Shown: positions 10,961-36,885 of the stretch, one piece after another | How the letters are laid out: each line of letters opens with the position of its first letter | Position numbering within the stretch: the stretch's first letter is position 1 | Assembly (NCBI GenBank): GCA_035485115.1 | Contig: DATHOG010000003.1 | Span: 3,755 to 67,754 of the forward strand | From: Candidatus Sulfotelmatobacter sp. | GTDB taxonomy: Bacteria > Verrucomicrobiota > Verrucomicrobiia > Limisphaerales > UBA11358 | Direction of reading: 5' to 3' | DNA length: 64,000 nucleotides | Translations under genes and position numbers: made by a program | Notes under the pieces: generated by a model | The model's database searches: none | What the model was told of the DNA's origin: nothing | The model's input: only the letters and a program-made list of their open reading frames with translations

Positions 10961-11049
10961 CCGGCGAGCCTAGGGCATCCGGCGAACGTAGACAATTTGA
11001 TTCATCGGTGCGGCTTGTTTGCCGGACGAGATTGCGGCATTATGTTCGC

Positions 11050-11607
11050 GTGAAAATTCTCGTCGCCATCACCGGCGCGACCGGCGCAATTTACGCGCAG
11101 CGGCTGCTGGACAACCTGAAGCCGGCCGAACACGAAATCCACGTCGTGTTCAGCAACTACGCGCACCAGGTCATCGCCACCGAGCTGCCGGAAGGAATAA
11201 AGCTGCCTGCCGGCGCCCAGACGCACAGCCTGAAGAGCATGAACGCACCGTTTGCCAGCGGTTCGAATCCGCCGGATGTCATGGTGGTGATTCCCTGCAC
11301 GATGGGCACGATGGGCCGCATCGCCCACGGATATAGCGAGGATGTCCTCTTGCGCGCGGCGGACGTAGTGTTGAAGGAAAAAAAGAAATTGATCCTTGTG
11401 CCGCGGGAAACGCCGTTGAGCCTGATCCACGTCAAAAATATGGAGCTGCTGCTGCTGGCCGGGGCGACGATCATGCCGGCGAATCCGAGTTTTTATTCCG
11501 GTGTGAAAACAATTGTTGAACTGGCGGACACAGTGGTCGCCCGAGTGCTGGACCACATGGGGATCGAAAACAAACTCGCCCCGCGCTGGGCGCAAGAGCC
11601 GGAATGA
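11050..11607 (+). CDS. ubiX: Flavin prenyltransferase UbiX
   Basis: VKILVAITGATGAIY N-terminus (GTG start at 11050 preferred over the upstream ATG at 11008) and a PCTMGTMGRIAHG block. Confidence 0.88.
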   Translation: MKILVAITGATGAIYAQRLLDNLKPAEHEIHVVFSNYAHQVIATELPEGIKLPAGAQTHSLKSMNAPFASGSNPPDVMVVIPCTMGTMGRIAHGYSEDVLLRAADVVLKEKKKLILVPRETPLSLIHVKNMELLLLAGATIMPANPSFYSGVKTIVELADTVVARVLDHMGIENKLAPRWAQEPE

Positions 11608-12062
11608 AAATCCTTCGTTTCACGGAAGATTTGTCGCTGGAAGAACGGTTTGAGCTGGGGCGGCTGCATCAGGCCGCGGCGGACGGCGACATCGGCGAGA
11701 TCCGGCGATTGTTGCAGACCGAGCACAAAAAACTGCTCAACGTTTTTGACGAGTTGAGCCTGACGCCGCTGATGCGCGCCGCAATGAACGATCATATCGC
11801 GGCGGTGAAGCTGCTGGTCGCCGCCGGCTCGGATGTGAATGCACACGATGACCGGCGTATCGGCAACACCGCCATCAACGAAGTGGCCGGCGACGGTTCG
11901 TTTGAGATGGTCGAGGCGCTGCTGGAAGCGGGCGCGGATCCGACCATCCGCGGCTGGATGAACCTGAACGCGCTCGACCGCGCGCGACACCGCACCAGCC
12001 GGCCGGCGATTTATGCGCTGCTGGCGGCGTCGGCGGAAAAGTTTAAGAAGAAAAAAAGATGA
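11604..12062 (+). CDS. Ankyrin-repeat protein (about 3 repeats)
   Basis: TPLMRAAMNDHIAAVKLLVAAGSDVNAHD and following ANK-like repeats. ATGA overlaps at both ends with ubiX and the ubiA-like gene. Confidence 0.8.
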   Translation: MKILRFTEDLSLEERFELGRLHQAAADGDIGEIRRLLQTEHKKLLNVFDELSLTPLMRAAMNDHIAAVKLLVAAGSDVNAHDDRRIGNTAINEVAGDGSFEMVEALLEAGADPTIRGWMNLNALDRARHRTSRPAIYALLAASAEKFKKKKR

Positions 12063-12961
12063 TCTCGACGATCCAAAAATGGGGAAGCTTCGTGCGTTTT
12101 TCGCACACCGTTTTCGCACTGCCGTTCGCGCTGGCGGCCATGCTCGTGGCCGCGCGGGATAATCGCGGCTGGCCGGGCTGGAAGGTTTTCGGACTCATTC
12201 TGGCGGCGATGGTTTGCGCGCGAACCTGCGCGATGGCGTTCAACCGCATCGTGGACCGCAAATTCGATGCGCTGAATCCGCGCACCAAAAACCGTCATCT
12301 GCCGGCGGGACAAATTTCATTGGCCAGCGCGATATCCTTGTGCGCGATTTCGGCGGCGGGCGTGGTTGCGGCCAGTTATTTCTTAAATCCGATCTGTTTC
12401 TGGCTTTCGCCCGTGGCTTTGGTGGTGATCTGTTTCTATTCGCTCACGAAACGGTTCACGGATTATACGCATGTTTTTCTCGGCATCGCGCTTGCGCTCG
12501 CGCCGGTCGGTGCATGGCTGGCGGTGCGCGGGACGGAGGTTACGACGATGGAAATTGTGCAGATGGTGCTGCTCGCTTCCTCGGTGATTTTGTGGCTCGT
12601 CGGGTTTGACATCATCTACGCGCTGCAGGATTACGAATTCGACAAATCGCAGGGTTTGCGGTCGCTCGTCGTCGCGTGGGGGCCGCAAAATGCGCTGGCG
12701 GCTTCGTTTCTTGCGCACCTGATCATGTGCGGACTATTGCTGGCGTTTGGAGTGTTTGCGTTCGGCCCGCGTTGTTTCGCGTATCTCATCGGCTGGTTCA
12801 TCATTGTTGGCTGCCTTGTGCTCGAACATTGGATAGCGCGGCGGCGGAGTTTGAACTGGATCAACCTCGCGTTTTTTCGGTTAAACGCGCTGGTGGGGGT
12901 CATTTTTCTCGTGATCGTGGCGGCGGAGGTGATTTTCCAGGGCCCCTTCAAATTTCGTTAG
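12059..12961 (+). CDS. UbiA-family aromatic polyprenyltransferase (4-hydroxybenzoate polyprenyltransferase-related; MqnP-like)
   Basis: About 8-9 TM segments, the first Asp-rich motif NRIVDRKFDALNPRTKNRHLP, and pairing with ubiX. Confidence 0.85.
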   Translation: MISTIQKWGSFVRFSHTVFALPFALAAMLVAARDNRGWPGWKVFGLILAAMVCARTCAMAFNRIVDRKFDALNPRTKNRHLPAGQISLASAISLCAISAAGVVAASYFLNPICFWLSPVALVVICFYSLTKRFTDYTHVFLGIALALAPVGAWLAVRGTEVTTMEIVQMVLLASSVILWLVGFDIIYALQDYEFDKSQGLRSLVVAWGPQNALAASFLAHLIMCGLLLAFGVFAFGPRCFAYLIGWFIIVGCLVLEHWIARRRSLNWINLAFFRLNALVGVIFLVIVAAEVIFQGPFKFR

Positions 12962-13002: not shown

Positions 13003-13938
13003 ATGGACACGGTAAAAATAGATTCGCCAATGCCCGAACCCAACAAATGCCCGCAATGCGGCACGCCGGTGGCGTCCGGTGCGCTGGCCGGGCTTTGCCC
13101 TGCGTGCCTGCTCAAAGCGGGGACGTCGGAGGACACGGTGACCGATGCAAAACAAGGTGCCTTCACGCCCCCGTCCGTCGCGGAACTCGCCGCTAAATTT
13201 CCCCGGCTTGAGATCCTCGAACTCATCGGCAAGGGCGGCATGGGGGCGGTTTACAAGGCGCGGCAACGGCAACTGGACCGGATCGTGGCGCTGAAAATCC
13301 TTCCGCCGGGCATCGGCGATGATCCGGCGTTCGCGGAACGCTTTGCGCGCGAGGCGAAGGCGCTGGCGAAATTAAATCATCCCAACATCGTCACGCTGTA
13401 TGAATTTGGCGACGCGGGCGGGCAGTTTTATTTTCTGATGGAATTTGTGGACGGCGTTAATCTGCGCCAATTGCTCCACGCCGGACGAATCTCGCCGCGC
13501 GAGGCGCTGGCCATCGTGCCGCAGATCTGCGACGCGCTGCAATTCGCGCATGACCAGGGCATCGTGCACCGGGACATCAAGCCGGAGAATATTTTGCTCG
13601 ACCGGCGCGGGCGCGTGAAGGTGGCGGATTTCGGTCTCGCCAAAATCATGGGAGGTGAAGGTGACGAGCCGGTGGCGGCCGGACAGGTTGCCACCGGTTC
13701 AATCGCGTTGACGGATGCGGGCAAGATGATGGGCACGCCGCAATACATGTCGCCGGAGCAGAAGGAAAATCCGGGCGAGGTGGACCATCGCGCGGACATC
13801 TACGCGCTGGGAGTGGTGTTTTACCAGATGCTCACGGGTGAACTGCCGGGCAAGAAACTTGAGGCGCCGTCCAGGAAAGTTTCGATCGATGTGCGGCTGG
13901 ATGAAATCGTTTTGCGCGCGCTGGAGCAGAAGCCGTAA
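13003..13938 (+). CDS. Ser/Thr protein kinase catalytic domain with an N-terminal zinc-ribbon-like CPQCG...CPAC; ends at an in-frame TAA
   Basis: GKGGMGAVYKA, HRDIKPENILL, DFGLA and GTPQYMSPE. The ORF stops inside the conserved C-terminal kinase motif. Confidence 0.85.
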   Translation: MDTVKIDSPMPEPNKCPQCGTPVASGALAGLCPACLLKAGTSEDTVTDAKQGAFTPPSVAELAAKFPRLEILELIGKGGMGAVYKARQRQLDRIVALKILPPGIGDDPAFAERFAREAKALAKLNHPNIVTLYEFGDAGGQFYFLMEFVDGVNLRQLLHAGRISPREALAIVPQICDALQFAHDQGIVHRDIKPENILLDRRGRVKVADFGLAKIMGGEGDEPVAAGQVATGSIALTDAGKMMGTPQYMSPEQKENPGEVDHRADIYALGVVFYQMLTGELPGKKLEAPSRKVSIDVRLDEIVLRALEQKP

Positions 13939-15552
13939 ATGCGTTTTCAACAGGCGAATGTTTTAAAAACGCAGGTGGAGACGATTGCCCAGGATGAAAA
14001 AGCGGAATCCGCCTCCGCGGAGCTGCGGCGCGACAAGAGCGGAAAGCGGAAAGTGGAAAATGAGCCGTATTTCTGGCGGTCGGTTGTGAAGATTGGCATA
14101 TGGGCGGCGATTATCGTCATCGCGGTAACCATGGCGATGCTTGCGATAAAAAGTAATCACCTTCCTCCAACCGTGGTGCTGACGCAGGCGGAGTTCCTTG
14201 ATAAATTTCAAGCGAACGAAATCGCACACGCGAAAATCAATATTGGTGGTCAGGCATCTGCGTTTACTCCGGTTACCGGCACTTATTTCAAAACTGACAA
14301 GGACGGGAAGGTAACGAAAGAGGAAGTTCCGTTCACCGTGCCAAACGCCTTTTTTACGCAGAAAATGCTGGATGCACTGTTGGTTTCCGGCAAAGTCGAA
14401 GTGGGTTCATCAAACACGTCACGGGAGATGATCATATGGAGTATCGCGCCTTTCCTCATTTTAGGTATTTTAGGTATTGGCACGGTGCTGCTACTCGGTT
14501 TCATCTTCGTCTTTATCATCCGCCGCGTCTGGCGGGCGACCCAGTTACCGTCGGGAGATGCAAGCGTTCCGCCGACCTCTAATCCCAAACGGGTCAACAA
14601 GAAAACCGTCTGGCTACTTGGCGTTTGTTGGTCGACCGTACTTTTAATCGGAGTATTCCAGTTGTGGAACAAGCATAAATTGGATGCGGAAATCAAGGCC
14701 TTGGAACAAAGCCCAGCCGCGGCGGAGGGTAACACTCCATTGCTCGCTACGCAGCCGCTGGTCGTGGCTGAAACAAATCCTGTTTCAAAAACGCACGATA
14801 TTGAACCGTCCGACCTGCGCGAGGCGCAGGCGAAACTGGCGGAGTTACGCGTGGATTATCCCGACAATAATCTGGTCGTTCAAAGGCAGCTCGTGCGTAT
14901 CAAGGAGCTTGAGCGCTTGTCGAAGGAGGAGCCCGGCATACCTGCCGATTTGCGCGCGGCCAAAACGGATCTGGCGGTCAGCCGGGTGGATTATTCTGAT
15001 AGCAGTCTTGTGGTTCAACGTCTGCTCGCCCGGATCGATGCGTTGGAAAAAATCGGGCACGACCAGCCGGGTGCTTCTGCGGAATTGCGTACAGCCGTGG
15101 CGCGGCGGGCCGAGTTGCTGGTGGATTATTCGCCGCAAAATCTCCTCGTGCAGGAAGTGGATGCGCAAACCAAAGTGTTGGAACAAGGTTCAACAGCCCC
15201 GGAGGGTGACAATCCATTGCTTGCCGCACAGCCGCCGGTCGTGGTCGAGACGTTTCCCGTTTCCGGCGCGCGTAATGTTGAGCCAGGAGAAACGGAAATC
15301 CGCGTGCGTTTCAGCCGGCCGATGATGGATGGCTCCTGGAGCTGGTCAACGGCGTGGGAAGATTCCACGCCGGAATTCATCGGTGATCCGCATTATGACA
15401 ATGACGGCCGGACGTGTGTGGTGAAAGTGAAACTGGAGGCGGGGAAGACATATGCCTTCTGGTTGAACTCGGACAAGTTTTCCAATTTCAAGGATGCCGC
15501 CGGCCGGCCGGCCGTGCCATATCTGCTGACTTTTACCACAAAACAAAAATAG
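13939..15552 (+). CDS. Membrane protein: 3 TM, FtsH-ext-like loop, three 45-aa repeats, C-terminal SbsA/Big_5-like Ig domain. Probably the detached C-terminal half of the kinase
   Basis: Same frame as the kinase, with the ATG directly after the TAA. It starts with RFQQANVLKTQVE, the usual continuation of PVC-type kinases. TM segments lie near aa 50-70, 170-195 and 225-245. Confidence 0.7.
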   Translation: MRFQQANVLKTQVETIAQDEKAESASAELRRDKSGKRKVENEPYFWRSVVKIGIWAAIIVIAVTMAMLAIKSNHLPPTVVLTQAEFLDKFQANEIAHAKINIGGQASAFTPVTGTYFKTDKDGKVTKEEVPFTVPNAFFTQKMLDALLVSGKVEVGSSNTSREMIIWSIAPFLILGILGIGTVLLLGFIFVFIIRRVWRATQLPSGDASVPPTSNPKRVNKKTVWLLGVCWSTVLLIGVFQLWNKHKLDAEIKALEQSPAAAEGNTPLLATQPLVVAETNPVSKTHDIEPSDLREAQAKLAELRVDYPDNNLVVQRQLVRIKELERLSKEEPGIPADLRAAKTDLAVSRVDYSDSSLVVQRLLARIDALEKIGHDQPGASAELRTAVARRAELLVDYSPQNLLVQEVDAQTKVLEQGSTAPEGDNPLLAAQPPVVVETFPVSGARNVEPGETEIRVRFSRPMMDGSWSWSTAWEDSTPEFIGDPHYDNDGRTCVVKVKLEAGKTYAFWLNSDKFSNFKDAAGRPAVPYLLTFTTKQK

Positions 15553-15564
15553 GAAGGAACTCGT

Positions 15565-18405
15565 ATGAAAATAAAACTATTGCCGTTGCTGTGCGCCGTA
15601 TTTGTCGCGCTCGCCGTACGGGCGGAGGATTCAGATACCATCGGCCAGAAATATTTCCCGGGCGGCGATTTGATTGAAATCAAGTCGGTGGAACGCTCGC
15701 CTGATTCCATGGTGGTCAAGGGTGAATACAATCTGGTCAGCCAGGACAGTGCGTTGCTGGCGCTATACATCACGGCCACGAACAGCGCGCAGGCAATCAC
15801 CCGCACCGGGGAGAACCAAACCATCAACATCGCCAAAGGCCACGGTGAATTTGAACTGATCCATCCTCACCCGGTTCCCGGCCTGCCGCATGTCTCGATG
15901 TATGGTGGCGACCACCATCCGTTCGCGACGGTTTATTTCGGCACCAAAGAAGAGGCGGCGGCGGAGGGTAATATGAATTTGAGCTCCGTCGCACCGGCAC
16001 ACGACATTGATTCCGCGCCACCGGTGGTCATCAAGACCATTCCGGAAGCGGGCAGAAATGACGTTTCGCCGGGCGAATACGAGGTCCAGGTCACCTTCAG
16101 CAAGGACATGGCCGACCAATCCTGGAGCTGGAGCACGGCGTGGGAAAATTCTGCGCCGGAGATGATCGGCAGGCCGCATTACGAGCCGGATCACCGGACG
16201 TGTATAGTAAAAGTGAAGCTGGAGCCGGGCACGACGTACGGCTGGTGGTTGAACAGCCAGAAATTTCACGGCTTCCGCGACACACAAGGCCATGCTGCCG
16301 TGCCATATTTGATGTCTTTTGGAACCGCCGGGGAAATGCAAACGGCCAAAGTTGAAAACGAAGCGGCTCAAGCAAGCACGCCAGAAAATTTGAAAACCGG
16401 GCTGGTCGGCCTGTGGTCAGGTGAAGACAGTACGATTGATTCCGTCAGTGGCAGCAAGGCAGTGAATGAAAACGTCACCTACACGGATGGCATGGTAGGA
16501 CGGGCATTCGCCTTCAGCCCGGATAAATTCACCTATGGCACCTATACGGGGGTTAAAGTGACCGACCGGCCTGAATTTGAACTGACCAAGGCAATGACGA
16601 TCACCGGCTGGATCCGGGTGCGCGGCACCGGGTACATGATTTTTTGGCGAGGGGATAACCGTCCCGGGTTGGACCCATATTCCCTTTCGATGCAAGGCAA
16701 CCACGATCTGCGTTTCACAATCTGCAATGAGAACGGGTTAAGCGCCATGGTGGACGCGGATATTCCTTATGATGAATGGATTCATATCGCAGCGACGCTG
16801 GATCGCAACACCGGTTACTCCAGATTGCGGCTCTACACCAATGCCGTGCTGGCGGCAGAGGCGAAGACCGACCTCCGGCCTTTCGGCGAATTGCAATCCG
16901 GCGCGTCGCCGGGTGTCGGCATCGGCAATGTCAACGACGGTGGAAATACTTTTCCGTTCCTTGGCGACATTGATGAACTTGCACTTTACAATCGCGGATT
17001 GTCGGCGGACGAGGTTCGGACGCTTTATAATCGTCGCGATCAGTTGGAGCCTGACGTGTCTGCAGCGCAAAAAGATCCCGCAATTCCGGTAGATTTGAGC
17101 TCCGAATACACGACGACCGCATCCCAGTTTGATCAACTCACTGATTTTCCCGCGTGGAAAAGTGTTCCCAGAGGAACGCAAGTGTTTGATCAGGTGCCGC
17201 TTCAAATTGGCGGAATGTTTTGCCTCTGGGGCGAGGGCTGCGCACAAGGAAAGCCGCCGTTTGTTTTCCCGGAAGCAACCACAGGTATCCGAATAAACCG
17301 GAAATTTGAAACTCTTTACATCTATCACGGATCGTTTTACGCGTCACCCGAAGGAACTCCGGTTTGCGATGTGGTGTTCCATTACGAAGACGGTTCGACC
17401 GTGACCAACCAGATGCTTTATGGCGAAGACTTTTTGGACTGGCGTGCGAATGTCAAAGGCGGCACGCCCATCAGTCCGGCCGGATCAAATTCCAGGCTGG
17501 CCTGGGTCGGCGGCTCTTTCTCGCCCGGTAAAATCGAGCCAGTGTGTTTTTGTCTGACGGCGATTGAAAATCCCCGCCCGCAACTGCCGGTCGTATCCGT
17601 GGACTTGTATTCCCGCAAGAGCCGGACCGCTGCCGTGATCATGGCCATGACCACCGGCCCGTCAGGATTGATACAGGAGAAAAGCGCGGTGCGGCCGGAA
17701 AGTGCAAACAATTTTGGTCCGAAGTCCGCCGCGCAGGCCTGGCTGGCGCTGATGGATGCGGGCGATTATCCGCAGAGCTGGGAAACGGCGGCGGATAGCT
17801 TTCACACGGCCGTCACCAAGAATGACTGGGTGAAGCTGTCCCAAAAAGTCCGCGAGCCGCTCGGCAAGTTGATCTCGCGCAAAGAAATTTCAACGCAGAC
17901 CAATGCCAGCATGCCGGGACTGCCGGACGGTTTGTATTTTATCGCGCAACTGGAGACATCGTTCGCCGCGCTGCCCGGCGCGGTGGAAACGGTCACGCTG
18001 GCCCGGCAAACGGACGGCCAGTGGAAGGTCATTTCCTACCTGATCCGCCCGCGCACGGCGGAACAAACGGCGGCGGTGACGGCGGCGCAGGCCTGGCTCG
18101 CGGGGATTGACGCGGGAAATTATGCGCAGAGCTGGACGGATGCGGCGGAATTTTTTCAAGGCGCGATCACGCAGGACAAGTGGGTGGCCGCCATGGAATC
18201 CGTCCGCAAGCCGCTCGGCAAAATGGCGGTTCGCACGGTGGATTCGGAAGAAACGAAAACGGAATTGCCCGGTGCGCCGGACGGCAAATATGTCGTCATG
18301 CAATTTAAGACCGCCTATGCTGACAAAAGTTCCGCGACAGAAACCGTGACGGTCGAACAGGACAAAGACGGAAATTGGAAGGCTGACGGTTATTATATCA
18401 AGTGA
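15565..18405 (+). CDS. Large secreted multidomain protein: Big_5/SbsA-like Ig domain, LamG (Laminin_G_3) domain, unknown middle region, two C-terminal DUF4019-like repeats
   Basis: Signal peptide MKIKLLPLLCAVFVALAVRA. The Ig domain is paralogous to the C-terminus of the previous ORF. LamG hallmarks are LVGLWSGED...DELALYNRGLSADEV. AAQAWLALMDAGDYPQSW and AAQAWLAGIDAGNYAQSW are duplicated modules. Confidence 0.75.
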   Translation: MKIKLLPLLCAVFVALAVRAEDSDTIGQKYFPGGDLIEIKSVERSPDSMVVKGEYNLVSQDSALLALYITATNSAQAITRTGENQTINIAKGHGEFELIHPHPVPGLPHVSMYGGDHHPFATVYFGTKEEAAAEGNMNLSSVAPAHDIDSAPPVVIKTIPEAGRNDVSPGEYEVQVTFSKDMADQSWSWSTAWENSAPEMIGRPHYEPDHRTCIVKVKLEPGTTYGWWLNSQKFHGFRDTQGHAAVPYLMSFGTAGEMQTAKVENEAAQASTPENLKTGLVGLWSGEDSTIDSVSGSKAVNENVTYTDGMVGRAFAFSPDKFTYGTYTGVKVTDRPEFELTKAMTITGWIRVRGTGYMIFWRGDNRPGLDPYSLSMQGNHDLRFTICNENGLSAMVDADIPYDEWIHIAATLDRNTGYSRLRLYTNAVLAAEAKTDLRPFGELQSGASPGVGIGNVNDGGNTFPFLGDIDELALYNRGLSADEVRTLYNRRDQLEPDVSAAQKDPAIPVDLSSEYTTTASQFDQLTDFPAWKSVPRGTQVFDQVPLQIGGMFCLWGEGCAQGKPPFVFPEATTGIRINRKFETLYIYHGSFYASPEGTPVCDVVFHYEDGSTVTNQMLYGEDFLDWRANVKGGTPISPAGSNSRLAWVGGSFSPGKIEPVCFCLTAIENPRPQLPVVSVDLYSRKSRTAAVIMAMTTGPSGLIQEKSAVRPESANNFGPKSAAQAWLALMDAGDYPQSWETAADSFHTAVTKNDWVKLSQKVREPLGKLISRKEISTQTNASMPGLPDGLYFIAQLETSFAALPGAVETVTLARQTDGQWKVISYLIRPRTAEQTAAVTAAQAWLAGIDAGNYAQSWTDAAEFFQGAITQDKWVAAMESVRKPLGKMAVRTVDSEETKTELPGAPDGKYVVMQFKTAYADKSSATETVTVEQDKDGNWKADGYYIK

Positions 18406-34301: not shown

Positions 34302-34613
34302 TCATCTTTTTGTTTTCACATCCCGATCGTGAATGAACAGGACGAGTGCGAAAAAGATCGCGCTGACGACGTTTACCGGAATCAGCAAACCCCAGCCGCG
34401 GTAATATTCAGCGTGTCCTGCGCGCCAGGAAAAATATACCAGGGCGGCGACGAGCGCCGACCAGAAGATTTGAAGCCCGATGCCGAAGAACATACGCCGG
34501 TTGGTCGGCGCGCTTTTGGTCATGAATAAAAAATAAAACGTCGGAATGAATAATGCGCCGAAGGAGATGAGTGTGCCGATGATCTGCATATTACTTTTGG
34601 TCTTTTTCGCCAC
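34302..34613 (-). CDS. Small 3-TM membrane protein, unknown function, last gene of the fluoride-riboswitch operon
   Basis: 103 aa, hydrophobic. Its start overlaps the 3' end of the DUF190 gene by 23 nt. Confidence 0.5.
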   Translation of the reverse strand: MAKKTKSNMQIIGTLISFGALFIPTFYFLFMTKSAPTNRRMFFGIGLQIFWSALVAALVYFSWRAGHAEYYRGWGLLIPVNVVSAIFFALVLFIHDRDVKTKR

Positions 34614-34938
34614 CGCGATAATGCAGCACCTTGACTTTTTCGAGCGTCACCAATCCGCCGCCGATCATCGGGTCGAGCTTCGGCAGAAACGAATTTATGT
34701 TTTCCTCGCTGTCCACGATTTCAATGACCAGGGGCAGGTCCTGGGAAAGCCGGATGATCTTTGAGGTGTGCACGAGGCTGGATTTGCCGAAACCCATCGG
34801 CCCGCGCAACACGGTTGCGCCCGCGAGGTGCGCCTCGCGCGCGGCGAGTACGATGGCCTCATAAAGCGGCTTGTGCTGCCAGCGGTCGCTTTCGCCGATG
34901 AAAATCCGCAGCAGGAGGGCTTCAGTGGGAATTTGCAT
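34591..34938 (-). CDS. DUF190 (PII-like) protein commonly linked to crcB
   Basis: LLRIFIGESDRWQHKPLYEAIV...ATVLRGPMGFG is the typical DUF190 pattern. It starts 3 nt downstream of crcB. Confidence 0.8.
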   Translation of the reverse strand: MQIPTEALLLRIFIGESDRWQHKPLYEAIVLAAREAHLAGATVLRGPMGFGKSSLVHTSKIIRLSQDLPLVIEIVDSEENINSFLPKLDPMIGGGLVTLEKVKVLHYRGGEKDQK

Positions 34939-34941
34939 AAT

Positions 34942-35364
34942 TTATTTCACGGGGTTGAAAACATTGCCGAGCAGGAAACCGAGCCACACGGCCACCATGC
35001 ACAGTACCACGGATAAAAGAATATTGCCGCCAGCGTAAAGATATTCGCCATCACGCAGCAGATTAAGCGTCTGCAAACTGAAGGAGGAAAAAGTGGTGTA
35101 GCCGCCGCAGATGCCGGTCATGACGAGCTGGGAGGCGAACACGCGCGATTGCGGATCCATCCGTCCTTCCGGCAACGTCAACGCGGCAAAGATACCGATC
35201 AGAAACGAACCGGAGACGTTAATGATGAGCGTACCGAGCGGAAAGGTTGCGGCGGCGGACGGGAATTTATCATGGACAAAACCTCCCATCCAGTAGCGGG
35301 CAATACTGCCAAGCGCGCCGCCGAGGGCGACCCATAGATACGGCCAAAGATTTGCGATGTTCAT
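34942..35364 (-). CDS. crcB: Fluoride ion channel CrcB/FluC
   Basis: 140 aa, 4 TM. GGALGSIARYWM, GTLIINVSGSFLIG and GGYTTFSSF blocks. Confidence 0.9.
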   Translation of the reverse strand: MNIANLWPYLWVALGGALGSIARYWMGGFVHDKFPSAAATFPLGTLIINVSGSFLIGIFAALTLPEGRMDPQSRVFASQLVMTGICGGYTTFSSFSLQTLNLLRDGEYLYAGGNILLSVVLCMVAVWLGFLLGNVFNPVK

Positions 35365-35408
35365 GATTTTACGCTGTTAATTTTGGCCGGCAACACGCCG
35401 GCCGTTTT

Positions 35409-35471
35409 GCGTAGGAGTCATCAGCGCTGAACATCAGGCGGTTTTCCATGCGGATGGCAGACTCCATTGCC
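35409..35471 (-). promoter_or_regulatory. Fluoride riboswitch (crcB RNA motif)
   Basis: Minus-strand RNA is GGCAAUGGAGUCUGCCAUCCGCAUGGAAAACCGCCUGAUGUUCAGCGCUGAUGACUCCUACGC. It has the conserved GGnnAUGGnGUnCnCC, AAACCGCC and GCUGAUGAnnCCUAC elements, and the pseudoknot pairing GGAGUC / GACUCC. It lies 44 nt upstream of crcB. Confidence 0.85.
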
Positions 35472-35569
35472 AAAAAATGTTTAACAATTTCCACGTTAAA
35501 TGGCAACGCTTTCTTGACTAGCCCGCCGGCCAAATTAACATGAGGGTTCGTTACTTTCGTAAAATCTAA

Positions 35570-36871
<1,302 letters not shown>

Positions 36872-36885
36872 TGCGTTCATAATTC

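Follow-up and report, generated by a model that had tools for sequence, protein, structure and literature searches.

A gene for a Hanks-type receptor Ser/Thr kinase in an uncultured member of the Verrucomicrobia is divided into two open reading frames by a single in-frame TAA codon, which stands in place of a conserved glutamate codon and is directly followed by ATG (Table 1; coordinates are those of the window, i.e. the whole 64,000-nucleotide stretch of contig DATHOG010000003.1 that was analyzed). Comparison with related loci leads us to favor, with moderate confidence, a recent gene fission, or a pseudogene in the making, that would have uncoupled phosphorylation from ligand sensing. The split is an ordinary lineage-specific gene disruption and not a new kind of system or mechanism, and the disruption of one among many paralogous kinases is unsurprising. 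It offers a clean, datable case in which one base change beside an existing Met codon made a pair of potentially co-translated genes out of a single multidomain one, and the split kinase may represent a first step of gene fission.

Table 1. Features of the split kinase locus and its flanking genes
Feature	Coordinates	Strand	Evidence
Co-directional upstream genes: ubiX-like flavoprotein, ankyrin-repeat gene, ubiA-like prenyltransferase	11008..12961	+	Pfam; synteny anchor for positional orthologues
Upstream ORF, truncated Hanks-type Ser/Thr kinase, 311 aa, N-terminal CxxC...CxxC and catalytic domain, TAA end	13003..13938	+	ORF list; Pkinase 175 bits (aa 70-285); PknB 1mru_A E = 4.8e-52
Pfam-recognized kinase catalytic part, aa 70-285; GKGGMG, VALK, HRDIKPEN, DFG, SPE intact	13210..13857	+	Pfam; translation; 152 invariant columns all kept
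TAA nonsense codon in place of conserved Glu (GAA), subdomain XI	13936..13938	+	68 relatives; L115; PknB alignment
ATG abutting the stop; formerly internal Met codon, now start of the sensor half	13939..13941	+	L115 GAA ATG; Met in 1/68 relatives
Detached kinase-domain end MRFQQANVLKTQVETIA: invariant subdomain-XI Arg and last fold helix, now N-terminus of the downstream protein	13939..13989	+	PknB alignment; invariant residues
Downstream ORF, membrane/sensor half, 537 aa	13939..15552	+	ORF list; Pfam; identical product on two other assemblies
Hydrophobic segment 1, putative TM1	14068..14163	+	Kyte-Doolittle, window 19
FtsH_ext-like extracytoplasmic domain, aa 55-157	14101..14409	+	PF06480; FtsH proteins 39-56% identity
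Hydrophobic segment 2, putative TM2, long	14422..14541	+	Kyte-Doolittle
Hydrophobic segment 3, putative TM3	14602..14667	+	Kyte-Doolittle
Three tandem repeats, 42, 45 and 41 aa, diverged in DNA	14803..15186	+	Pairwise z = 11-20 vs shuffles
Big_5 bacterial Ig-like domain, C-terminal	15229..15540	+	PF13205 40.3 bits; 0 private substitutions, 87 sequences
Next gene, 946 aa, Big_5, LamG-like and two DUF4019	15565..18405	+	ORF list; Pfam

The two ORFs share a common frame (13939 − 13003 = 936 = 312 codons), and the protein sequence across the junction reads ...VLRALEQKP-stop-MRFQQANVLKTQVETIA. Coordinates and junction sequence agree with the original prediction that same-frame ORFs are separated only by TAA and then ATG, a stop-start distance (TAAATG) of 0 nt. 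The stop lies outside any homopolymer or repeat.

The upstream half matches Pkinase (PF00069) at 175.1 bits, relative to a Pfam cut-off of 31.7, and all of the Hanks catalytic motifs (GKGGMG of the Gly-rich loop, VALK, REAKAL with the αC Glu, HRDIKPEN, DFG, and SPE with the APE-type Glu) are present, each in invariant columns. The Pfam Pkinase model stops short of the junction, even with the stop replaced in the read-through sequence. The read-through sequence aligns with positions 13–286 of PknB (1mru_A, E = 4.8e-52), and in this alignment the stop corresponds to the Glu of NPENRYQ and residue 2 of the downstream ORF to its Arg. This Arg (+2 past the stop) is invariant among 20 sequences, as are Gln+4, Lys+10, and Glu+14. 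The PknB alignment and the invariant residues place the cut inside the catalytic fold rather than at a domain boundary; the fold is not complete in one chain, since its subdomain-XI Arg belongs to the downstream ORF. A conserved APE-Glu/Arg ion pair joins the activation segment to the αH-αI loop (PMC2823524). In the AF2 model of the homologue P0186, pLDDT falls below 50 at the junction (residues 227–285), and the cut was therefore placed in the structure by the sequence alignment with PknB only.

The downstream half matches FtsH_ext (PF06480, 28.6 bits, cut-off 25.5) and Big_5 (PF13205, 40.3 bits, cut-off 23.6). Together with three hydrophobic segments and repeats of 41–45 aa, these Pfam matches corroborate the TM segments, FtsH-ext-like loop, three repeats, and Ig-like domain described earlier from the sequence. 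The repeats are seen at the protein level only, where repeat-versus-repeat alignment scores lie 11–20 sd over shuffled controls, and were undetected by TRF on DNA. In NCBI the two products are separate proteins, HTB82081.1 and HTB82082.1, of which the second is named “FtsH/Yme1/Tma family metallopeptidase.” This name is a misnomer, because the protein has only FtsH_ext and Big_5 and no ATPase or peptidase domain; the two records are halves of one receptor kinase.

The next gene starts 12 nt after the sensor ORF, with no convincing terminator in the gap; it is probably co-transcribed with the sensor half and would face polarity were that half untranslated. Fused kinases have some of this gene’s modules in their sensor tails.

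A stop is present at the junction site in none of 68 related loci, and the motif is continuous in all of them, the junction residue being Glu in 47, Gly in 11, Ala in 7, Asp in 2, and Arg in 1. GAA is the commonest codon, occurring at 33 of the 47 Glu loci. The closest proteins in a database of 5.8 billion, at 81–83% identity, all have Glu-Leu at the site, and no relatives at 83–100% identity were found in the genome, metagenome, and protein collections. UbiA is encoded upstream of the kinase at 27 loci, and UbiX too at 25, with 67–86% identity to the window proteins; the window kinase is itself directly 3′ of ubiX/ubiA, on the same strand. The positional orthologues that cover the site with ubiA upstream (n = 25, 23 with ubiX too) are all single ORFs, whereas the window and its near-clone L001 carry the TAA. 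These comparisons, together with the invariant residues beyond the stop, show that the two ORFs are no unrelated pair with a stop between them by chance; they also uphold the proposal that a normally continuous PVC-type kinase was split by a GAA to TAA change at a conserved Glu, and none of the 25 positional orthologues shows the consistent two-gene boundary that would speak against it.

Several apparent cases of a separate kinase or sensor gene among the relatives were rejected. P0010, a candidate stand-alone sensor gene (89% coverage, no kinase domain), begins at base 11 of its contig, and P0039 and P0057 are fragments too. The 305-aa P0172/L159, considered as a second truncated orthologue, results from a 1-nt frameshift, and the remainder continues as ALEKKPELRYQQ; the frameshift is probably an assembly error, because the adjoining amidase gene on that contig is also split.

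Across the junction, L115 and the window are identical at 36 of 37 nt, synonymous sites included, and the sole difference is G/T (GAA ATG in L115, TAA ATG in the window). One transversion thus created the stop when the ATG was already present, and with ATG as the next codon the mutation gave the abutting stop-start at once. An ATG that arose later to compensate for the stop was rejected, since L115 has GAA ATG with identical flanks. The order of events is read from L115, the NJ tree alone being insufficient for this purpose. The sequence comparisons show a single-step G-to-T origin, with the stop confined to one uncultured verrucomicrobial population. Met at +1 is found in 1 of the 68 relatives, and a stop exactly before a Met is a mild coincidence (roughly 2–5%), a hint that the mutation needed translation of the downstream part in order to survive. 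If so, calling the gene a “pseudogene” may understate the importance of the pieces.

The gene is one for a Hanks-type transmembrane receptor Ser/Thr kinase, which related Verrucomicrobia encode in a single ORF just 3′ of ubiX-ubiA, and in this population the transversion turned the subdomain-XI Glu codon into TAA. Ribosomes ending at the TAA would probably reinitiate at the adjoining ATG, so that the membrane/sensor protein would continue to be produced, now as a chain of its own, and its ongoing translation would protect the co-directional genes 3′ of it from polarity. The kinase piece would no longer be covalently coupled to the sensor and would be detached from the membrane; it is probably destabilized, because the invariant Arg, the last fold helix, and the membrane anchor would all be lost. 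Termination-reinitiation requires overlaps or very short distances, as shown by experiment (PMC10666635), and many of the window’s own genes meet in abutting or overlapping stops and starts, with SD-like motifs being rare. At the junction, GGAG is located 12 nt 5′ of the ATG at 13939, with no good SD at optimal spacing. Termination-reinitiation at TAAATG is a plausible route to the downstream half.

The gene may instead be dead, with the downstream half translated poorly or not at all, the products without a role, and decay pending. We regard this as unlikely, although it accounts for several observations: the split is unique among the 68 relatives, the cut falls within the catalytic fold, and the GGAG is not well spaced from the ATG. 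Paralogous kinases are also numerous (7,791 database proteins at E ≤ 1e-60, and dozens of related loci), so these genomes can probably do without one of them. However, reinitiation does work at abutting junctions of the TAAATG type, which native pairs in the window use, and the genes beginning 12 nt past the sensor ORF would suffer polarity from 1.6 kb of untranslated RNA. Moreover, no secondary lesions are present in the 2.5 kb, both ORFs being intact. The kinase half has 0 private substitutions at 152 otherwise invariant columns (26 sequences), and Big_5 likewise has 0 at its otherwise invariant columns (87 sequences). The gene thus carries a disabling mutation that intact orthologues lack, but shows no sign of relaxed constraint. 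By this sequence evidence the split event is young, and the suggestion of a recent pseudogene holds in the sense of a recent disabling mutation. The lack of decay in either half implies either a very young event or halves that are still constrained, and it fits a very recent event and continued purifying selection equally well.

It is improbable that the two pieces form a functional kinase, in which the coupled chains would associate again without a covalent bond and signaling would be kept, the sensor’s N-terminal helix (MRFQQANVLKTQVETIA, with the invariant Arg) docking on the C-lobe of the 311-aa protein. The exact abutment and the strong ATG start would suit such an arrangement, every conserved residue is kept in both halves, the segment that was cut off forms a distinct helix-like unit that is conserved, and the split recurs in three assemblies and two haplotypes. 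In addition, subunits of complexes are overrepresented among gene pairs that overlap or lie close together (PMC10666635). The arrangement is, however, found in 0 of 68 relatives, and hence there is no sign of its maintenance over time; the ATG is older than the stop and owes nothing to selection for a split gene, and a very young mutation, whether neutral or deleterious, would give the same pattern. We know of no kinase whose C-lobe is rebuilt by a separate 17-residue helix. The further idea of a two-chain Hanks kinase caught at birth, with fixed-ratio synthesis via TAAATG reinitiation, reassembly through the subdomain-XI helix, and signaling kept, is a long shot; if it were true, association of the two chains would constitute a new regulatory step.

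A sequencing or assembly artefact, with GAA as the true codon and an intact gene, is very unlikely, even though a one-base difference would suffice and all observations are metagenome assemblies of one population. The TAA is real. The same TAAATG junction occurs in two other assemblies, ENA ERZ27253678 (contig k141_4935912), in which the TAA is identical, and JGI 3300050821, where the match is known from gene calls of 311 and 537 aa; in each, the exact 537-aa product is encoded beside an abutting 311-aa kinase gene. The ENA contig differs from the window by 4 other SNPs in 13.6 kb, and the kinase half in both ENA and JGI carries a D7G variant, indicating at least two haplotypes with the stop. 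No intact allele was found among the 5.8 billion proteins, and the site, as noted, offers no homopolymer or repeat at which an error might be expected. With the stop present in three assemblies and in two or more haplotypes, the sequencing-error option of the original prediction is unlikely. The three assemblies represent one population (99.97% identity), perhaps from related samples; the stop may accordingly fall short of fixation, and the population could retain a minor allele that is intact.

Programmed stop-codon readthrough or recoding to a full-length 849-aa kinase, also raised originally, can be set aside as the least probable explanation: the halves are in frame and fully conserved and the stop replaces a sense codon within a domain, but TAA is a normal stop here (it ends 12 of 32 long window ORFs, 9 of these with the same TAAA context), UAA is the least leaky bacterial stop codon, the stop is absent from all relatives, and there is neither a tRNA or suppressor gene in the window, nor a significant RNA fold around the stop or 3′ of it (z = −1.35), nor an Rfam element at the locus, nor any codon reassignment.

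The positional orthologues of uncultured Verrucomicrobia (for example, L133, L080, L100, and L002; proteins P0186 and P0059) have the same ubiX-ubiA-kinase synteny, 81–85% identity in the kinase region, and the junction motif ALEKxPELRYQQ. They differ in that none is interrupted, the site being occupied by Glu, Gly, Ala, or Asp, and in their extracytoplasmic tails, which vary widely (124 to 1338 aa past the junction); the FtsH_ext-like part of the window sensor is common only to L098 and L100 among them. PknB of M. tuberculosis (PDB 1MRU) is similar to the ancestral protein with respect to its alignable catalytic domain and its order of cytoplasmic kinase, membrane span, and extracytoplasmic sensor. 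In contrast, PknB has PASTA repeats and one hydrophobic segment, where the window protein has an FtsH_ext-like domain, three 41–45-aa repeats, Big_5, and three hydrophobic segments, and NPENRYQ of PknB becomes QKP-stop-MRFQ, with the chain interrupted at the Glu position, two residues ahead of the invariant Arg. The sensor half also resembles the N-terminal region of FtsH (TM-FtsH_ext-TM), genuine FtsH proteins matching its residues ~50–200 at 39–56% identity, but it has neither the AAA+ ATPase (PF00004) nor the M41 peptidase (PF01434) of FtsH in Pfam searches.

Translationally coupled gene pairs (Huber et al., 2019, 2023; PMC6728339, PMC10666635) are likewise co-directional, with stops and starts that overlap or abut, and the zero distance at the split kinase resembles that of native window pairs. 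Those pairs are conserved two-gene arrangements, whereas the split kinase has the proximity (0 nt) but not the conservation (0/68 relatives), being a novelty of one population made by a nonsense mutation within a domain. Bacterial pseudogenes and split genes made by nonsense mutations are similar in that one substitution disables the gene relative to intact orthologues in one lineage only. The present case differs from them in showing no secondary decay as yet and in having an in-frame ATG right after the stop, from which the 3′ part may still be expressed.

A receptor kinase has been split into the kinase and sensor halves by a nonsense mutation that is real, young and lineage-specific, in agreement with the overall interpretation of the original prediction. 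The two ORFs (311 and 537 aa) share a frame and are separated solely by a TAA directly followed by ATG; the protein sequence across the junction reads ...VLRALEQKP*MRFQQANVLKTQVETIA, and both ORFs are otherwise intact. Pfam gives a Pkinase match (175 bits) for the kinase half, and an FtsH_ext-like domain and C-terminal Big_5 Ig-like domain for the sensor half, in which three hydrophobic segments and three repeats of 41-45 aa (alignment scores 11-20 sd over shuffles) were also recognised. Every feature described for the halves is present. The three-repeat block is flanked on both sides by a duplicated leader, EQxxxAxEGxxPLLAxQPxVVxETxP, which suggests that the block arose by internal duplication at the Big_5 domain start. 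N-terminal to the kinase domain, a CxxC...CxxC motif (KCPQCG...LCPACLLK), nearly invariant across the family and with no Pfam match, resembles a zinc-ribbon-like element.

Coordinates of features at the split kinase locus and elsewhere in the window
Feature	Position	Strand	Remark
Kinase half	13003-13938	+	311 aa
HTB82081.1	13030-13938		kinase half, separate protein at NCBI
CxxC...CxxC motif	13048-13116
Stop codon TAA	13936-13938
Sensor half, HTB82082.1	13939-15552	+	NCBI 'ATP-dependent metallopeptidase FtsH/Yme1/Tma family protein'
TM-FtsH_ext-TM module	14101-14541
Leader, first copy	14704-14781		aa 256-281
Leader, second copy	15178-15255		aa 414-439
Next gene	15565-18405		946 aa
Next gene, N-terminal module	15640-15999		aa 26-145
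Next gene, Big_5	16018-16326
DUF190-like ORF	34591-34938	-	small
CrcB-like ORF	34942-35364	-	140 aa, directly downstream of riboswitch
Fluoride riboswitch	35405-35480	-	Rfam RF01734, 45.8 bits
ORF overlapping riboswitch	35369-36880	-	503 aa
Enolase-like ORF	35579-36871	+
Differences from ENA contig (L001)	13022, 8970, 8974, 9412		only four in 13.6 kb

Genome and metagenome collection scans gave 157 loci, in 68 of which (window and near-clone excluded; some mutual near-duplicates) the junction motif was located. None of the 68 has a stop at this site, which encodes Glu in 47 (33 GAA, 14 GAG), Gly in 11, Ala in seven, Asp in two and Arg in one, bearing out the proposed GAA to TAA change at a conserved Glu codon of a normally continuous kinase. 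The kinase lies downstream of ubiA in 27 loci, and of ubiX too in 25; this common gene order, together with 67-86% protein identity, identifies them as positional orthologues. Orthologues consistently encoding two genes were not found, all 25 positional orthologues that cover the junction being single ORFs, and a search of 5.8 billion database proteins likewise gave Glu-Leu at the junction of the nearest non-self matches (81-83% identity). Catalytic domains are very similar among positional orthologues (loci L079-L133; 81-85%), but the extracytoplasmic tails are wholly different, ranging from 124 to 1338 aa post-junction; the locus appears to have a domain-shuffling hotspot at its sensor end. 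One positional orthologue (L159 6001-7045; ENA ERZ25039590 contig_56254) has a 1-nt frameshift approximately 20 codons upstream of the junction and an adjacent amidase gene also in two pieces; these breaks are probably indel errors of long-read assembly, not biology.

Met at the codon after the stop occurs in a single relative, locus L115, which also matches the window in having the rare Gln at -3 and Phe at +3; for a stop to fall immediately before so rare a Met (1 of 68 relatives) is mildly coincidental. The window and L115 nucleotides, GCGCTGGAGCAGAAGCCG[G/T]AAATGCGTTTTCAACAGG, agree in 36 of 37 positions, also at synonymous sites, the only mismatch being the stop-making G/T; other relatives differ at many positions. 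L115 ranks first in identity among 69 loci around the junction and 45th of 70 just upstream, implying that it is a mosaic or distant relative, not a sister genome. The simplest history is one G-to-T transversion on a background already having ATG; the GAA-ATG allele, which exists in L115, rules out the ATG as a later compensatory change. A neighbor-joining tree places the window beside L133 (Glu-Leu), although the tree alone does not fix the order of events.

With the stop bridged in silico, the kinase aligns to the M. tuberculosis PknB kinase domain (1mru_A, chain positions 13-286, E = 4.8e-52), window QKP*MRFQ falling on PknB NPENRYQ with the stop at the Glu position. The invariant subdomain-XI Arg, which pairs ionically with the APE-motif Glu (PMC2823524), is now residue 2 of the sensor-half ORF; the APE motif reads SPE in the kinase half. 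This alignment, the ion pair, and conservation continuing past the stop (Arg+2, Gln+4, Lys+10 and Glu+14 invariant in 20 aligned family members) place the cut within the catalytic fold rather than between domains, and the split kinase does not have a complete catalytic domain on a single chain. The Pfam Pkinase model ends at approximately profile position 200 of 263, stop bridged or not, and the AlphaFold model of an 83%-identical homologue (P0186) is unreliable at the junction (residues 227-285, pLDDT below 50); hence the PknB sequence alignment and conservation are the basis of the placement.

The kinase half keeps 152/152 columns invariant across 26 positional orthologues and, at columns where all the other sequences agree, shows no private substitutions (0-11 in those sequences); the Big_5 domain likewise has none (87 sequences). 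Either the lesion is very recent or both halves are still under selection, which are indistinguishable because searches found no diverged genome with the split. Termination-reinitiation requires, by experiment, overlaps or very short distances (PMC10666635). Because the 0-nt stop-start distance suits reinitiation, and abutting or overlapping genes are frequent in the window and SD-like motifs scarce, ribosomes stopping at the TAA would probably reinitiate at the ATG and still make the sensor protein. The predicted product starts with the orphaned kinase helix, within a cytoplasmic N-terminal stretch of 53 residues; TM1, the FtsH_ext-like loop, TM2 and TM3 come next, then the repeats and Big_5. 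Its translation would shield from polarity the next gene, which begins 12 nt past the sensor half with no terminator signal in the gap. The 311-aa fragment, without the conserved Arg, final helix and membrane anchor, is no longer physically joined to the sensor and would be expected to lose stability. The coincidence of the stop with a rare Met suggests that the mutation survived since the 3' part remained translatable, so that a functional two-piece reading retains a low probability; a nascent two-chain kinase reassembling via the detached helix seems to us quite improbable. The nonsense split falls in an ordinary category, a gene disrupted by nonsense mutation, at an unusually early, undecayed stage.

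Sequencing or assembly error had also been considered. An ENA contig (ERZ27253678, 40 kb) and, from gene calls, a JGI contig (3300050821, 8.9 kb) encode the exact 537-aa product with a 311-aa kinase gene abutting it. Over 13,614 nt, 4 SNPs separate the ENA contig from the window, and the TAAATG is the same in both. One SNP (A/G at 13022) replaces Asp7 by Gly in the kinase half, at its non-conserved N-terminus; since D7G is common to the ENA and JGI copies and not in the window, the stop is on at least two haplotypes. The three stop-bearing assemblies represent one population, from samples that may be related. Two protein searches, one in the 5.8-billion-protein database, found no intact allele, and a random assembly error is an unlikely source of the stop. 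Programmed readthrough is unsupported: TAA terminates 12 of the window's 32 long ORFs (nine in the same TAAA context), no tRNA genes lie within the window, the RNA around the stop has no unusual structure (z = -1.35) and Rfam has no match at the locus.

In the next gene, the N-terminal module shares 54% identity with aa 581-699 of P0005, a segment inside the sensor tail of this fused kinase, and the Big_5 shares 66% with that of P0005, evidently reflecting module exchange between kinase tail and neighboring gene. Elsewhere in the window, the fluoride riboswitch, CrcB-like and DUF190-like order is the standard arrangement, and the 503-aa ORF is probably a shadow of the enolase-like ORF. The MAG with HTB82081.1-82082.1 carries the label Candidatus Sulfotelmatobacter sp., a genus of Acidobacteria, whereas syntenic relatives with named records are all labelled Verrucomicrobia (e.g. 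L002, Verrucomicrobiia, UbiX/UbiA 83-85% identical); the contig is probably mis-binned or the bin mis-classified.

Despite the NCBI name of the sensor half, Pfam finds only FtsH_ext-like and Big_5 domains in it, and no AAA+ or M41 domain, ruling out FtsH protease identity. Genuine FtsH proteases (P0099-P0118) have N-termini with 39-56% identity to the TM-FtsH_ext-TM module of the sensor half, suggesting that the kinase sensor gained an ftsH 5' segment; among relatives, the FtsH_ext module occurs only in L098 and L100 (45% identity). The split does not belong with conserved coupled gene pairs, and its stop is not a recoding site. Hanks-type receptor kinases are abundant in Planctomycetes-Verrucomicrobia genomes, and the window's receptor kinase resembles PknB-type kinases in its working but differs in its sensor.
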